64,000 bases of DNA from Planctomycetota bacterium (GTDB lineage Bacteria; Planctomycetota; UBA8108; SXIK01), in contig OZ244999.1 in NCBI GenBank assembly GCA_965223265.1, positions 3,520,001-3,584,000 on the forward strand, given 5' to 3'. The notes beneath the pieces are model-generated. The model was not told the origin of the DNA. It ran no database searches and saw only the letters and a list, made by a program, of their open reading frames with translations. This document shows, piece after piece, positions 1 to 52,240 of this stretch; the first letter of the stretch is position 1; every line of letters begins with the position of its first letter. A program made the position numbers and the translations under genes.

Positions 1-241
1 CCGTGCGTCTGAAGAAAAATCTCAAAGCGCTGTAGGCGATTTTCAAGGACCCGATAGCGAACTGACGCTCGTGCCTGAGGTGGAAAAGATAGTCGCGGAC
101 TTGAGTTTCCGAGAGCGTATCGGGAGACTTGTGATAGTGTTTCGCCAGCTGCCCGACGGCCCAAACGTAGACCCTGCAGGTACCGTCGGCGAGACCGGCA
201 AGTTCCAGATCCTGGAGAAACTTTTGGCGAAGAGGCGTCAT
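1..241 (-). CDS. Tyrosine recombinase/integrase, N-terminal part (runs off window)
   Basis: ATG at 241 corresponds to ATG 49504 of the complete copy (MTPLRQKFLQDLELAG...). Confidence 0.9.
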   Translation of the reverse strand, partial: MTPLRQKFLQDLELAGLADGTCRVYVWAVGQLAKHYHKSPDTLSETQVRDYLFHLRHERQFAIGSLKIAYSALRFFFRRT

Positions 242-424
242 AGCGTGCTCCTTTCTGAGAGGTTGCTTTCTGCAGAAAGAGCATCATCGACGCCTCGACG
301 CCTTTACGCCTCATCGAACGGGCCGCAGAGCGAGCACACCGGTGGCCCGAGGCGGCCGGCGATCGTCACCCAGAACGCCTGAACGAACCGGGCCTGCCGC
401 GAAGCGGCTTCCTTGAACTCGAGG
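1..424 (-). mobile_element. Left end (partial) of tyrosine recombinase + IS91-type transposase element, second copy
   Basis: Reverse complement of 49321-49744. Identity stops after CTCGAGG (424) and the flank is TTAA. The element continues beyond the window start. Confidence 0.93.
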
Positions 425-871
425 TTAAGAATGTCCGTCTCACGGTGAAGACTACCAGCAAATGTACGTGATTGGGCATCACGACGAAGTCGCCCATGTT
501 GTAACGAACCCCATCGAAGTATAGCAAACTATCAGCGACGATCCTCGACAGCTCTGGACGCTGCAGAACGCAGGTTCCACAACCCTTGTCCAGGCTCTCC
601 ATATACCGCTTCGCGAACCTCTCATGATACTCGGTGCGCTGTCGCGTCGTGAGGTTCCATGCTTTCTCTGAGAATCTCTCATGGTCTTCGAGATTCCGTG
701 CTGTGAGAGCCACGTGTCACGGTCCTCGTACCATTGCCGTGCGATCTCCGTTGGGATGGAATCCTCGGTGCGAAATGTAATGAAGTAGGTTGCGGTCGGC
801 TGAAACCAATGTGGAAGGTTGCCACCACCTGTCACGCGCACTTCAACTCTCGGGTCGAAAAGGTCAAACAT
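425..871 (-). pseudogene. REP-associated tyrosine transposase (RAYT, Y1 HUH), frameshifted and interrupted by the element at 424
   Basis: LPHW..TYFITFRTEDS in ORF 479-946 and the HUH motif FVVMPNHVHLLV in ORF 366-713. Frame switch near 655-700, C-terminus missing, REPs immediately upstream. Confidence 0.85.
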
Positions 872-1022: not shown

Positions 1023-1077
1023 TGGCTTTCGCACGCCGAGGCAACGATACTTTAATGCCGCCGTCGTGCCTCACGGA

Positions 1078-1184
1078 CACGTCCGGAACGGCACACGGCG
1101 TGTGCCTGCTACTATAGACACGAGTCGACGCCAACACGTTCTTCGAAGTACAGAGACACGCCGGAGTGTGCCGCTCCGGACGTG
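1078..1184. repeat. REP doublet (REPIN-like)
   Basis: CACGTCCGGAACGGCACACGGCGTGTGCCTGCTAC ... GTGTGCCGCTCCGGACGTG inverted arms; homologous to 33442-33543. Confidence 0.85.
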
Positions 1185-24598: not shown

Positions 24599-25423
24599 GA
24601 CCTCGGACTTCACCTCGGAGAAGGAGCCTGTATAGGGACCGGATTTCCCTCGGTTAACCGTCGGCCCTTCGCCGACAAATCGCCATTTCCCACCGCGCTC
24701 AAGGAGCACGTAGAGGCGCCTCTCCTCCCGATGGTGACCTGACCCGCCGCCAGGAGCTTCTGCCCAACCGATCTCGTACACGACGCCGAGCGACGGATGC
24801 GCCGCTTTGCGAGCGGCGTAATCGCCGGCGCCATGATCGGAGCTGGGCACCTTGTCATGGAGCTTCGCGACGGCACGAATATTGTTGCCGCGAAGGATCC
24901 TGCGCGGTCCGCCAGGTGCCTCCTCCTCATAGCGGAGGAGGACCCAGCGCAGCGGTCTTTCTGCCGGGCGGTACACGTAGGCGCGATCAAGCGTGAATTC
25001 AGGATCTCCGTTCGCGTCGATCGTTATCCACATGAGATCTTGTCCCGCCCAGGCGAAAGTGGGACGCGCAGCGCGCACGAGCTCCTTCCAAGACTCCGCC
25101 TGCAGCCGAAACGCTTTCTCTGGGAGTGTCTGCCCGATCAAAGGATAACAGCCTGCTGAAGAAGTGCTTCGAGCCGAAAACTGGTTCTTCGCGTCCAGAT
25201 CGGCTGCGGCAAACGCAGGTAATCTCCGAGATCTTTGAGTATTGACGCCGTCGAGCTGGGCGTGAAGAGGCCAGTTTCTCGGCCGAATGACTTTTTCAAC
25301 GGGCTGATAAGGTAGAGCAGACTCTTTCTTTGGAGTCTCGACTCCAAAGAGCAGCTGTCCGCTCAAGACACAGGTCAAGAAAACGCGTGTTGTCATAACC
25401 ATACTCTTTAGCTTCTCCATCAC
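24434..25423 (-). CDS. Hypothetical secreted protein carrying an in-frame MITE; 3' end probably truncated
   Basis: Signal-like N-terminus, 329 aa open frame; last ~55 codons overlap the convergent gene. Confidence 0.55.
   Translation of the reverse strand: MMEKLKSMVMTTRVFLTCVLSGQLLFGVETPKKESALPYQPVEKVIRPRNWPLHAQLDGVNTQRSRRLPAFAAADLDAKNQFSARSTSSAGCYPLIGQTLPEKAFRLQAESWKELVRAARPTFAWAGQDLMWITIDANGDPEFTLDRAYVYRPAERPLRWVLLRYEEEAPGGPRRILRGNNIRAVAKLHDKVPSSDHGAGDYAARKAAHPSLGVVYEIGWAEAPGGGSGHHREERRLYVLLERGGKWRFVGEGPTVNRGKSGPYTGSFSEVKSEVLRFTGRREPHLQSLRRILRLPGHARVAVAEAEFRVLLLIPGMKDTHPVVAGDES
25149..25306. mobile_element. 158 bp MITE with 4 bp target duplication ATAA
   Basis: Ends CAGCCTGCTGAAGAAGT and ACTTTTTCAACGGGCTG are inverted repeats; ATAA at 25145-25148 and 25307-25310; homologous to 28811-28892. 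Confidence 0.85.
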
Positions 25424-28810: not shown

Positions 28811-28892
28811 CAGTCCGTTGAAAAGTCATTCGGCCGAGAAGCTAGCCCCTTCGCGTCCAGTTTTCGACTCAAGGCACGTTTTCAACAAGCTG
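28811..28892. mobile_element. Internally deleted copy of the 25149-25306 MITE family
   Basis: CAGTCCGTTGAAAAGTCATTCGGCCGAGAA matches the reverse complement of 25276-25306; other end TTTTCAACAAGCTG; flanks TGAA/TTAA. Confidence 0.78.
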
Positions 28893-33197: not shown

Positions 33198-33441
33198 GCG
33201 GCAGAGTCTCGCTGTCGAAGCCGTCTGAGTCTAAAAAACCGGCCGCACCAGCGCGGCCCATCATACGCACTTCAAATTTTACGAAAAACCACCGAATGCC
33301 GTCAATGCGTTCGGCGAGGTTCGCCGGTCAGTGCTGACGCGTTCGGACAATTGCGGAGGGCGTTGCTCGTGAGTTTGGCGCAACTGTCGCCTCCTCGGAG
33401 AGGCCGCGAACTTTTTACATCGTGGCGTCGTGCCTCAGGGA

Positions 33442-33543
33442 CACGTCCGGAACGGCACACAGGAGTGTGCCTGCGACTATAGGGGACGTCGCCAACACGA
33501 TCTTGAAAGTAGCAGGCACACGCCGTGTGCCGTTCCGGACGTG
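33442..33543. repeat. REP doublet (REPIN-like), same family as 1078-1184
   Basis: CACGTCCGGAACGGCACAC..GTGTGCCTGCGAC and GTAGCAGGCACACGCCGTGTGCCGTTCCGGACGTG arms; shared spacer CGCCAACACG. Confidence 0.9.
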
Positions 33544-33704
33544 AGCGCGAGTTACGCCGGCATGCTCAAAACTGCACAGCCTCGGAGTGTGCTCCGCGCA
33601 GACGTTGACTTCTCGGTGCTTGTACGGTCGAATCGTCGCGGTTGAGCCACGACAAAAAATCAAAAAACGCCTTCGCACAACCTCTGACGTTTTGAAGCGT
33701 CGAA

Positions 33705-49204: not shown

Positions 49205-49503
49205 ACATCTACCGTAGAACGAGGCACCAAGAAAGGCAAGCCGTGCTTGCGCGAGCTTCAACGCTCTTCAACGCTCGGTGCACGGCTCCGCTAAGATGAC
49301 CGCGCAACCAGCGCGGCTAGCCTCGAGTTCAAGGAAGCCGCTTCGCGGCAGGCCCGGTTCGTTCAGGCGTTCTGGGTGACGATCGCCGGCCGCCTCGGGC
49401 CACCGGTGTGCTCGCTCTGCGGCCCGTTCGATGAGGCGTAAAGGCGTCGAGGCGTCGATGATGCTCTTTCTGCAGAAAGCAACCTCTCAGAAAGGAGCAC
49501 GCT

Positions 49504-50412
49504 ATGACGCCTCTTCGCCAAAAGTTTCTCCAGGATCTGGAACTTGCCGGTCTCGCCGACGGTACCTGCAGGGTCTACGTTTGGGCCGTCGGGCAGCTGG
49601 CGAAACACTATCACAAGTCTCCCGATACGCTCTCGGAAACTCAAGTCCGCGACTATCTTTTCCACCTCAGGCACGAGCGTCAGTTCGCTATCGGGTCCTT
49701 GAAAATCGCCTACAGCGCTTTGAGATTTTTCTTCAGACGCACGGTGCCGCGCGACTGGAAGACGCTGGAGGATTTGCGAACGCCGAAGGAATCCAAGCTG
49801 CCAGACGTCCTCAGCGTCGAAGAGGTTCACGAGATCATCGCGGCGACCTGCAGCCAGCAGTGGCGCACCTGCTTCTGGATGATCTACTCCCTTGGCCTGA
49901 GGATCTCTGAGGGCATCTCGCTCGAAGTGGGAGATGTCGACGCGGCACGCTCTTTCGTGCACGTTCGTGGCGGCAAGGGTGCCGCTGACCGCTATGTGCC
50001 GCTTCCCCCCGATACTCTCGAAGCGCTGCGCCGCTACTGGAAGACGCATCGCAACCCGCGACTTCTTTTCCCCGCCCGCGGCCGCGGGGACAAGCAGGGA
50101 CGATCGGCCACGCAGCCCGTGTCGAGGAAGACAGCTCAGGCAGCGTTGCGTCGCGTCGCCACGCAGCTTGGCATCAAGAAACGCGTTTCGCCCCACACTC
50201 TGCGCCACAGCTATGCGACACACTTACTCGAGGCTGGTGTCAACCTCCGTGTTATCCAGAAGTACCTCGGCCACAGGTCGCTCAAGGCTACGTCGATCTA
50301 CCTGCACCTTACACGTGATGGCGAAGAGCAGGCCCACGCGACGATCAACGCGCTCATGGTACGCCCTCGCTCAGAGGAGGGCAAAGCGGCGAGGACGAAC
50401 GCCGGCCAATAG
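49504..50412 (+). CDS. Tyrosine recombinase/integrase
   Basis: GLRISE (R), GKG (K), HTLRHSYATH, LGH, TSIY; AGAAAGGAG RBS. Confidence 0.95.
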   Translation: MTPLRQKFLQDLELAGLADGTCRVYVWAVGQLAKHYHKSPDTLSETQVRDYLFHLRHERQFAIGSLKIAYSALRFFFRRTVPRDWKTLEDLRTPKESKLPDVLSVEEVHEIIAATCSQQWRTCFWMIYSLGLRISEGISLEVGDVDAARSFVHVRGGKGAADRYVPLPPDTLEALRRYWKTHRNPRLLFPARGRGDKQGRSATQPVSRKTAQAALRRVATQLGIKKRVSPHTLRHSYATHLLEAGVNLRVIQKYLGHRSLKATSIYLHLTRDGEEQAHATINALMVRPRSEEGKAARTNAGQ

Positions 50413-50418
50413 CGCACC

Positions 50419-51550
50419 GTGGCGTCGCTTGCGGAGATTTTCACGCGCTATGGCGAGGAGTATCTGGAGTGTCACGGTTCCAGCGTGCCTCTGCAGCACC
50501 GTCGTGTCCTGGCGCTGCTGAGCGCCTGTGGCACTGGCGATCTGGGTTACGTGCGCTGGCGCTGCGAGAGCTGCGCTCGCTCTCACCGGACGCCCCGCTC
50601 GTGCGGCAACCGCCATTGTCCGGGCTGTCAGTCCTCCAAGAACGTGCGCTGGCTCGCCGAGCAATTACAGCATCGACTCGAGGTGCCCTACTTTCTCCTT
50701 ACATTCACTCTGCCCGCAACGCTACGACCCTTCGTGCGCTCGCAGCAGCGTGCCTGCTACCGGGCGCTCTTTCGCGCCGCCGCTGAATCGCTTCAGAAGC
50801 TCGCACGCGATCCACGCTTTCTCGGTGCGGCGCGCCTTTGGCTTCACCGCGGTTCTGCACACTTGGGGACGGGCGTTGGCATATCACCCGCACCTGCACG
50901 TGTTGGTGCCGGCCGGCGGCTTGAGCGACGATGGTGCGAGCTGGATCACCTCGCGCCCCGACTTTCTCGTGCCGGTCAAGGCGCTGTCGAAGATCTTTCG
51001 CGCCAAATTCCGCCACGAGCTGCAGCGGGCTGGTCTTCTCAAGGACATTGCGCCTGCGGTGTGGACAGAGAACTTCGTCACCGACTCGCGCGCCGTCGGT
51101 GACGGCGAGTCGACACTCACGTATCTATCACGCTACGTCTTTCGCGTAGCGATCTCCAATGCCCGCATCGTCTCCTGCGACGATGGTCGCGTTCGCTTTC
51201 GCTGGAAGAAGTCGGGCAGTCGGCGGTGGCGGACCATGGAGCTCGATGCTCTGGAGTTCATCCGCCGCTTCCTCCAGCACGTCCTACCTCGGGGGCTACA
51301 GAAGGTGCGTCACTACGGATTCCTCAGTCCGCAAAGCGCCGTCTCCCTCCACGAGGTGCGAGTCTTTGTCGCTAGAGTGAACCCTCCCGCCGACGGCGCA
51401 CAGATTCATTCCGATGCGAACGGAGCCAGGGCGGCGCCGTCGACGACGACGGACAGTCCCACCGAACACCCCTTCTGCTCGTGCTGCGGGGGCCGGCTAC
51501 ATGTCATTGCGATCGTCTTTCATCGCGTCGGTTTCCGCGACTCCCGGTAG
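50419..51550 (+). CDS. IS91-family transposase, frameshift at TTT 50837-50839
   Basis: Zn-binding SCGNRHCPGC, LHTWG..HPHLH (HUH), YLSRY (Y2), VRHYGFL. Removing one T joins ORFs 50419 and 50528 (GAARLGFTAVLH). Confidence 0.9.
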
Positions 51551-51890
51551 AAAGACACCGTGAACACTCTCCCACCGAACGACCCATTGCGCCCGAAAAC
51601 CCGCCATGCCAACGGCGGGGCGCCCCCGGTCTGCTCCCACAGTGAACAGCGCGACTGCCAACGCGAGATTCGGTGCGCTCAGCACGTCGCAGACACCGTT
51701 CACGCGGTTGATTCCGCTCCTGGGGCTCCCTCGCGTGAGCCTTATCGCCGCTGCCTCTCCCTCTGACCTCCCCGTCAAATCGAAGCGTTTCCCATCACGT
51801 CCGACGGTCGCTCCTGCGGCCAACGAGGAGCCGCGAGGCTCCTTGAACTCAGGATTTGGACTCGGCTTCGCTCGCCCAAATCCTCATCCA

Positions 51891-52147
51891 GTTCCAGTTT
51901 GGCCATTTCGCGCCGGCCTGGCCGGACGAGTTTCGCGGGAATTCAAAGGCCTTTCGACTTTTTCGTACCCTGAGAAACCCTTGTGCATATTCAAAAACTC
52001 CTGTCCGGCCCTTCGGGGAACGCCAGGAGCGCCGATGCCTGCGTCGCTCCTCCGCCACGATCGCGGCGGGATCGCGTTGTCGTCGCTCCTTGGCCTCGAC
52101 GCTCCTGGCGTTCCCAGGCTCGACGCGAAATGGCCAAACTCGAGCTA
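51891..52147. mobile_element. Structured MITE-like element
   Basis: 17 bp perfect IR AGTTTGGCCATTTCGCG (51896-51912/52124-52140) and inner 16 bp IR GGGAACGCCAGGAGCG (52016-52031/52100-52115). Confidence 0.75.
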
Positions 52148-52240
52148 ACAGTCCGTTGAGAAGCCATGCAGCGGACTCCACGGTGCGAGATCTCGGCCGA
52201 GAACGCAGCACCGTGAAGCCGCCGGTTAGCTTGTCATCGC

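Follow-up and report, generated by a model that had tools for sequence, protein, structure and literature searches.

A tyrosine recombinase-bearing IS91-family element whose joined ends are predicted to fold like attC, and relatives of it inserted in integron attC sites

The window analysed here, a stretch of 64,000 nucleotides from a Planctomycetota bacterium (contig OZ244999.1, positions 3,520,001 to 3,584,000 of the forward strand), contains an insertion sequence of about 2.5 kb. Judged by its sequence it is a member of the IS91 family, namely of the subgroup in which a tyrosine recombinase gene lies upstream of the transposase gene in the same operon; an IS91 element with an integrase-like gene is a known kind of element. 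What is new concerns the relatives: their surroundings indicate that members of this IS91 subgroup home, in several phyla, to attC sites in integron arrays. In addition, the two ends of the element, when joined, are predicted to form an imperfect hairpin of the attC type, which consists of an outer stem, unpaired spacers, an inner stem, and a variable loop. We describe the anatomy of the element, its exact insertion site, the conservation of its ends and catalytic residues, the predicted fold of the joined ends, and the relatives' attC targets. Based on these data, we propose with reserve a mechanism in which the HUH protein would make single-stranded circles and the recombinase would integrate them.

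The genome is one contig of 9.18 Mb (G+C content 60.8%), in which four full copies of the element (A to D) plus fragments were found. Copy A lies entirely within the window. Its extent, 2570 bp from TTCAAGG to CCAG, was deduced from an alignment of the four copies and from the empty site, which belongs to a miniature inverted-repeat transposable element (MITE). The boundaries of copy A were set after the G and before the TT, following a rule taken from the right tips of the relatives; they can be shifted to the right by at most 2 nt, because TT is common to the edge of the element and the target. The parts of copy A and its surroundings are the following (window coordinates, plus strand):
49317-49321: CTAGC, target duplication of the MITE; target, not element, as given by intact MITE ends
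49322-49327: CTCGAG, inverted-repeat tip of the MITE; target, not element (intact MITE ends read YTARC-CTCGAG-TTTGGCC)
49328-51897: element copy A
49327-49339: left box GTTCAAG-G-AAGCC, in which G 49327 is a target base; it is the inverted counterpart of 51837-51848 plus one base
49337-49349: sub-terminal left hairpin GCCGC-TTC-GCGGC; the stem is conserved, the loop varies
49504-50412: tyrosine recombinase gene, 302 amino acids, intact (PF00589, E 2.1e-37; PF13495, E 7.4e-19)
50419-51550: IS91-type transposase gene (zinc-binding domain and Y2 HUH domain), frameshifted
51830-51848: internal inverted repeat with GCCGCGA, GGCTC, and the box CTTGAAC (51842-51848); a GGCTTCTTGAAC-type motif, present in 57 of 79 related loci
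51851-51884: right-end hairpin with the arms AGGATTTGG (51851-51859) and CCAAATCCT (51876-51884), supported by covariation
51885-51897: right tip CATCCAG, followed only in copy A by the 6-nt repeat TTCCAG
51898-52144: remainder of the interrupted MITE
52145-52149: second 5-nt flank, CTAAC

The end motifs were traced among relatives of the element. Of 8000 candidates scored, 7979 were related to the transposase at E <= 1e-10; its relatives thus number in the thousands. A profile scan of one representative genome per species gave 518 related stretches, from which 79 loci were retained; in at least 76 of these, a recombinase match is located directly upstream of the transposase. This architecture recurs in Planctomycetota, Nitrospirota, Desulfobacterota and others. 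The ends were fixed independently by seven genomes with several copies; those of a Rhizobium relative (L111), which is a single copy, were not definable. The left-end motif comprises a flank ending in G, TTCAAG, a variable base, AAGCC, and a GCCGC/GCGGC hairpin, and was found in 56 of the 79 loci. The right-end motif comprises GGCTT, CTTGAAC, 3-4 nt, a hairpin with a GGATT/AATCC base, and 6-7 nt ending in G; it was found in 57 loci, the downstream sequence being sufficient in 71 of the 79. A reading made earlier from the letters of this stretch, here called the sequence-only reading, had staked its idea on end motifs that are shared by homologues, and shared they are. In the relatives, the left hairpin has a loop of TNC or TNNC when the top strand is read, and of GNA or GNNA when the bottom strand is read; GNA and GNNA are unusually stable DNA loops. 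In the right hairpin, five of the eight predicted pairs show compensatory changes among 25 sequences. Rfam gave no match in the element, nor in the loci L032, L042, and L059.

The left end begins with TTCAAG without exception. The 39 distinct right tips end in GTT (32 cases), GAT (5), or ATT (2, one of them doubtful); in one genome, two sister copies end with G|TT and the third with G|AT. The simplest explanation for these tips in combination with a constant TTCAAG is that the element ends with G and that the next two bases are target. In most copies a cut after G is indistinguishable from a cut after GTT because TT is shared, and only the GAT tips favour the G. For integrons, an excerpt of PMC8876359 places the crossover between the first and the second base of GTTRRRY. 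RRRY follows exactly after GTT at only 8 of the 39 insertion sites.

The left flanks of many relatives look like attC sites. Seven intact sites beside relatives were used to build a covariance model (R1), with which 654 kb were searched; the consensus of the seven sites has a CTAAC box, an inner stem carrying one additional base, a centre that varies between 5 and 50 nt, and a GTTAGGC box. R1 locates the aadA1 attC of R100 exactly (38.7 bits, E 7.5e-7), and this is its sole match in 50 kb. Arrays of 2-6 sites with a spacing of 340-900 nt were detected in L032, L035, L042, and L046; L035 also contains an open reading frame (ORF) resembling an integron integrase, with a score of 222 bits for the first 192 of the 315 positions of the model. 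Within the last box of an R1-type attC start 11 element copies in 10 loci. R1 matches R100 on the strand opposite aadA1, and the cassette-sized ORFs of L035 and L042 are opposite the genes of the element. Since the element genes oppose the cassette ORFs and the attC is read as the bottom strand, the elements lie antisense to the cassettes, at the R''-side GTTRRRY box. The idea that the relatives occupy the canonical integron crossover was dropped, as attC reads as bottom strand on the sense strand of the element.

In the genome of the bacterium itself, R1 had no match within the window, nor at the other three copies (B to D), and a search by regular expression found no attC array. The MITE tip that is used here as a target (YTARC, 5-nt spacer, GTTTGGC) may be a small look-alike of the paired box. 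In a Desulfobacter genome, two copies share an adjoining 129-nt attC-like site plus the element (L075:2879-3007 and L089:2878-3006); this could mean that the site moves together with the element, or that the region has been duplicated. An excerpt of PMC9229058 mentions that ISShvi3, which is IS91-like, adjoins an attC in a Shewanella integron. In the literature searched (ISfinder and TnPedia were not part of it), this remark was the only mention of a link between IS91-like elements and attC, and conserved ends, an attC-like junction, or systematic insertion into attC boxes were not described.

The fold of the joined ends was computed for a natural case as well as for the element. At L059:44-146, a natural head-to-tail junction folds with -25.2 and -27.9 kcal/mol on its two strands (z-values of -6.9 and -7.0). 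In the predicted structure, an outer stem of 12 bp, in which a single base bulges out, is followed by an asymmetric internal loop and then by an inner hairpin; the aadA1 attC of R100, folded alongside, has the same topology. Joining the element's own ends in silico gave -25.8 kcal/mol, a z-value of -4.4, and 18 pairs between the two ends. In these junctions, CTTGAAC pairs with GTTCAAG and GGCTT with AAGCC over one bulge, and the asymmetric spacers and the right-end hairpin are enclosed, while the GC hairpin of the left end falls outside the paired boxes. The single bulged base (T, G or A) occupies a fixed position of the outer stem; some homologues, although not this element, have an extra G in the inner stem. 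That the joined ends would fold like attC had been anticipated in the sequence-only reading, and both junctions agree with it.

The same reading had, however, assigned the parts differently: the left end, i.e. TAAC-N5-GTTCAAG plus hairpin, was to be one half of an attC of the aadA type, with the right motif as its other half. All strings on which it relied are present within one base, the left one at 49317-49349, its inverted partner GCCGCGAGGCTCCTTGAACTCAGG at 51830-51853, and the hairpin arms at their positions. The attC layout had also been described correctly, as the aadA1 attC of R100 (L112:13475-13537) contains TAAC, a 5-nt spacer, GTTCAAG, 5 nt, and the identical 13-mer GCCGCTTCGCGGC; the right end shares GGCT..AACTCA.G with this site. 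In the genome studied here, the 13-mer is rare, occurring at 10 sites on both strands, five of which are left ends of the element. Nevertheless, this assignment is very unlikely and already contradicted by the copies and the homologues. The junction described as copy 1 does read TAAC-N5-GTTCAAG, but its TAAC is MITE flank that varies between copies, so that TAAC as part of the element was rejected. The left boundary, drawn at YTAR/CCTCGAG, has to be moved inwards because empty MITE sites carry both of these strings, the first as the MITE's duplication and the second as its tip. Moreover, the spacer that contains AACTCAGG lacks conservation among homologues, and the 13-mer hairpin is outside the paired boxes of the fold, which are CTTGAAC and GTTCAAG. 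As a separate observation, the inner part of the aadA1 attC (GTTCAAGCC, 13-mer hairpin, GGCTTAAC) resembles the left box, the left hairpin, and the internal right box of the element combined, either by common descent or by convergence on a stable hairpin. A BLAST search of the left end against plasmids returned chance matches only and did not retrieve aadA attC sites.

The insertion site of the element in this genome can be given to the base. All four copies lie within the terminal inverted repeat of a 253-bp MITE, each in another copy of it. The empty site reads YTARC, CTCGAG, TTTGGCC, and the occupied one YTARC, CTCGAG, TTCAAGG...CCAG, TTTGGCC; a comparison of occupied and empty MITE tips revealed no target duplication made by the element. 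The copies, their right ends, and the flanks of copy B are:
Copy A, window 49328-51897, plus strand: one 49-nt terminal unit, then the 6-nt repeat
Copy B, genome 3517830-3520427, minus strand, extending into the start of the window: one 49-nt unit (TTGAAC...CCAG)
Copy C, genome 96675-99245, plus strand: about 3.5 tandem 49-nt units
Copy D, genome 2247720-2250261, minus strand: stops after ...CTCAGGA, no 49-nt unit
Window 1-417, minus strand: left 417 nt of copy B, cut by the window start; perfect inverted repeat of 49318-49744 (the 100% inverted match covers window 1-427)
Window 423-418, minus strand: MITE tip CTCGAG beside copy B
Window 428-424, minus strand: 5-nt flank TTAAC

The right end thus varies in the number of terminal units, from none in copy D to about 3.5 in tandem in copy C. 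Tandem right tips or whole terminal units like those of copy C also occur in the relatives L034, L037, L057, and L076, and the unit of L037 likewise starts at the TTGAAC of the internal box. Besides the full copies, two solo 49-nt units (genome 1901796 and 2962046) and two left-end remnants (7550834 and 5438757) were found, and a rearranged fragment at 5931689-5932136. Full copies, solo units, and remnants are all at the same step, CTCGAG|TTTGGCC; the genome contains 117 empty sites of this sequence versus 20,032 GAGTT sites. At all eight occupied or once-occupied MITE ends, the 5-nt flank is NTANC and never its complement, which hints that the flank may belong to the recognised sequence.

BLAST detected 46 near-full copies of the MITE, with the tip CTCGAGTTTGGCC and a 5-bp target duplication; a strict pattern found 33 copies of about 253 bp, 25 of them with a perfect duplication. 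One could imagine that the element entered a MITE only once and that the MITE transposase then spread the composite unit. It is true that a single MITE family borders all four copies and that the 5-nt flanks on the two sides of copy C match. This explanation is hardly credible, as the MITE occurs in both orientations relative to the element, and the MITE parts around the copies are only about 93% identical (18 of 249 and 15 of 217 aligned bases mismatched), compared to 5-6 substitutions per about 2525 nt (about 99.8% identity) between pairs of element copies; furthermore, solo units are found at this site in two more MITEs. A search for MITE parts that are almost identical at all copies found none, and the composite was rejected. 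The 5-nt flanks vary between the four copies (CTAGC, TTAAC, CTAAA, CTAGC). The higher identity of the element copies and the two orientations of the MITE argue for four separate recent insertions into one sequence.

The genes are arranged in the same orientation with a gap of 6 nt. The recombinase is 31% identical to IntI1 of R100 and possesses all six catalytic residues (R133, K158, H231, R234, H257, and Y266); among NCBIfam models, XerA and integron integrase score best. A preprint places IS91-borne recombinases in an "integron-like" subgroup with IntI, without the IntI insertion. Of 59 full-length homologues, which are 40-59% identical in sequence, 58 retain the hexad; the remaining one is truncated. 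The transposase is about 26% identical to that of IS91, and H158, H160, Y235, and Y239 are invariant among 17 aligned transposases. Its domains PF14319 (E 7.3e-25) and PF04986 (E 1.6e-59) are in two different frames in copy A: an extra T in the run 50837-50839 splits the gene in copies A and B, and owing to this one-base frameshift the transposase of copy A cannot be made without frameshift readthrough. Copies C and D lack the extra T and contain a single ORF of 376 amino acids with the HUH histidines and both tyrosines. The recombinase gene of copy D has a 1-nt deletion near its end; accordingly, copy C is the only one of the four with both genes whole. Both enzymes are under purifying selection, and because their catalytic residues are kept across phyla, both presumably cut DNA.

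These data bear on the possibility that the element is a passive cassette, moved by a host IntI, with its two enzymes as cargo or relics. The presence of relatives in cassette arrays and the boundaries, which obey the G|TT rule, would be expected in this case. On the other hand, a search for integron integrases gave 41 matches in the genome, none of them above the cut-off; the highest scores, 96 bits, belong to the recombinases of the element itself. No such attC is present either, yet the genome contains four near-identical copies. Also, the elements are antisense to the cassettes, and purifying selection acts on both enzymes. We therefore consider it highly improbable that the element is moved in this way.

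The mechanism that we propose instead involves both enzymes of the element. The HUH enzyme would nick at the right-end hairpin, and rolling-circle replication would peel off a single strand, as IS91 does. In this strand or in the circle, CTTGAAC near the right end could pair with the GTTCAAG of the junction around the right-end hairpin and so create the attC-like fold. The recombinase would then exchange strands at the G|TT step of this box with a similar target box, which would be an attC where integrons exist and, in this genome, the GTTTGGC of the MITE inverted repeat beside the YTARC flank. Single-strand production, the role of the recombinase as the integrating enzyme, and the choice of strand are the conjectural parts of this scheme, to which we give a nearly even chance of being correct. 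It is a modified form of the hybrid of rolling-circle and integron movement suggested by the sequence-only reading. What speaks for that hybrid is the attC-like fold, an integron-like recombinase with the six residues, and relatives in attC; the insertion typical of IntI is missing.

Several observations weigh against an integron-like route of integration. The recombinase is below every NCBIfam cut-off (TIGR02249: 176.6 bits versus a cut-off of 265), and its alignment with IntI1 has a 33-residue gap where the IntI-specific insertion is expected. All seven positions of CTTGAAC are complementary to GTTCAAG, while each of the two boxes fits the degenerate RYYYAAC/GTTRRRY at only 5 of 7. Scoring the joined ends with an attC covariance model, as proposed for the sequence-only reading, did not lead to recognition: R1, which is our own narrow model from seven sites and distinct from that of IntegronFinder, assigned 2.4 bits (E 2.1 in 400 nt) to the natural L059 junction. 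Among the 26 distinct genomes in which both junctions can be read, R1 identifies the target as an attC in only 8; in the remaining genomes the elements are in other sequences, some of which are local repeats. The position of the relatives is the mirror image of the canonical integron crossover. A structural attC test on reconstructed empty sites was positive for 8 of 39 insertion sites versus 371 of 5146 control GTT sites, which include real attC from the same arrays; this test discriminated poorly, and for this reason R1 was used instead. The bottom-strand end of the full element directly follows CTTG, and that of the 49-nt unit directly follows GTTC. These are tetranucleotides used by IS91 enzymes (excerpt of PMC13181058), so that the HUH enzyme alone could set the ends. 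Finally, both sub-terminal hairpins also exist in classical IS91, which is free of a recombinase; they are thus family features and may serve the HUH enzyme.

The latter points lead to an alternative in which the Y2 transposase does all cutting and joining, as in IS91, and in which the right hairpin would serve as origin and the left one as terminator on the bottom strand. Folded hairpins such as attC would be hit as mimics of its own origin (AAC, 6-7 nt, hairpin), and the recombinase would be an accessory, which might resolve head-to-tail multimers or guide and proof-read termination like Orf121 in IS91. For comparison, three single copies and one tandem pair of classical IS91 from E. coli plasmids were inspected. 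Their left end has a GC palindrome 8 nt inside and their right end the palindrome GGATTT..AAATTCC plus a 7-nt tip; the ends of our element are homologous to these, with a GC palindrome about 8 nt inside the left end and, at the right end, a GGATT-type palindrome plus a tip of 7-10 nt. The bottom-strand ends of element and unit, after CTTG and GTTC respectively, are each 3-4 nt past a hairpin, and L037 has a unit duplication of the same kind. The GNA/GNNA loop of the left hairpin is on the bottom strand, the functional circle strand of IS91 as reported in an excerpt of PMC13181058. The HUH and tyrosine residues are invariant, and head-to-tail copies occur in L059 as well as in classical IS91 (L110). 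In the latter case (L110:2790-2900, NZ_OQ420465.1), two copies are arranged with zero bases between their tips, as expected from failed termination.

What this alternative leaves unexplained is the retention of a catalytically intact, integron-like recombinase in 58 of the 59 homologues and the homing of the subgroup to attC, which differs from the 4-nt specificity of IS91. In addition, the GAT tips fit a cut after G better, and the flank at the origin end has no conserved tetranucleotide. According to PMC13181058, IS91 uses a CTTG/GTTC target at the origin end, has a palindrome next to the terminator cleavage site, and takes the bottom-strand circle as substrate; this agrees with the copies of classical IS91 inspected here, where CAAG follows the right end in two of the three single copies. 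In our element the right-end flank varies and a constant GTT adjoins the left end, and no IS91-type CTTG/GTTC was found at the origin end. We rate the action of the transposase alone as the main rival, somewhat less likely than the two-enzyme proposal.

A broader view of the two-enzyme proposal would regard the element as an analogue of an integron cassette that mobilises and replicates itself: an HUH-made circle of single-stranded DNA, a junction folded in the manner of attC, and IntI-like insertion into attC boxes or their look-alikes. The integron system of IntI and folded attC might then share its origin with these elements, since their recombinases are reported as the closest relatives of IntI. 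We regard this extension as unlikely. If true, it would offer a concrete model for the source of attC-type sites, whose origin, together with that of IntI, is a long-standing question. For the pair of an integrase-like gene and a transposase gene, as some IS91-family elements carry it, there is now a defined anatomy: the ends are placed exactly, the junction fold is conserved, and the target is defined. The intact copy C makes the two-enzyme mechanism directly testable, and a further class of elements that interrupt cassette arrays is flagged.

Some observations concern the surroundings of the copies. Beyond window 51898-52144, the MITE family has about 60-80 more copies in the genome, with the tip CTCGAGTTTGGCCATTTCGCG and a duplication of YTARC or GYTAR. 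The MITE beside copy B (genome 3517655-3517858) is truncated and fused to a tRNA-like stretch; the same junction is present at 1898726 and 5912928, and its occurrence at three places suggests segmental duplication. An ORF containing the motif MPNHVHLL was recognised by eye on the minus strand at window about 430-700, in the left flank of copy B. It resembles an IS200/RAYT-type Y1 HUH transposase and is seemingly interrupted by MITE plus element. A second palindromic repeat with the core CCGTTGAAAAAGTCATTCGGCCGAG is located at window 25256-25295 and 28821-28860 and gave 242 BLAST pieces genome-wide. It is shorter than the MITE, has ends of CTAAC and GTTAG type, and may be a REP-like element; the MITE is frequently inserted at its CTAAC end, resulting in nested repeats. 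Inverted repeats unrelated to the element are found at window 1060-1113, 33414-33460, and 33508-33571 (54 nt at 89%, 47 nt at 74%). Contigs from the sequencing runs X1-X4, which stem from one study with two samples and are possibly the source of the assembly, diverge into unrelated sequence within the element at 51240/51241, 50570, 50598, and 51509; these breaks suggest more insertions or rearranged copies in the sampled population. A joint of right and left end was not seen in these contigs, which drop rare forms and hence are silent on circles.

Among known systems, IS91, IS801, and IS1294 are the closest in design. Like our element, they possess a transposase with a zinc finger and a Y2 HUH domain, make no target duplication, have two unlike ends with sub-terminal palindromes, and occur in tandem copies. 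In IS91, the accessory orf121 is located just upstream of the transposase gene, in the place where the element has a catalytic tyrosine recombinase. Unlike these three, the element carries an internal inverted copy of its left end ahead of the right hairpin (GGCTT-CTTGAAC, absent from classical IS91), has conserved target bases at its left flank, and uses a long specific site rather than a tetranucleotide. ISShvi3 is an example of an IS91-family member with an integrase-like ORF and has the same gene pair.

With integrons, the element shares a recombinase of the same branch as IntI and a boundary after the G of a GTT box, and its joined ends, as predicted, resemble an attC: paired 7-mers, a spacer, an inner stem, and a variable loop make up an imperfect hairpin. 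In contrast to integrons, it has no IntI insertion domain, no attI, and no Pc, and it brings its own enzymes; its paired boxes deviate from RYYYAAC/GTTRRRY, and the relatives insert antisense at the R''-side box.

The logic of the proposed mechanism has a counterpart in the CTX phage of Vibrio, where an HUH replication protein makes single strands and a folded site is used by Xer-type recombinases. CTX uses the host XerCD at dif, whereas our element encodes the recombinase and targets attC-type boxes; the integration of CTX is mentioned in an excerpt of PMC9345347. Mobile elements that likewise home to attC sites are the group IIC-attC introns, which lie opposite to the cassettes as stated in an excerpt of PMC9229058, and the IS1111-attC elements. 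Their enzymes, a reverse transcriptase plus ribozyme in the introns and a DEDD transposase in the IS1111-attC elements, are unrelated to those of the element described here.

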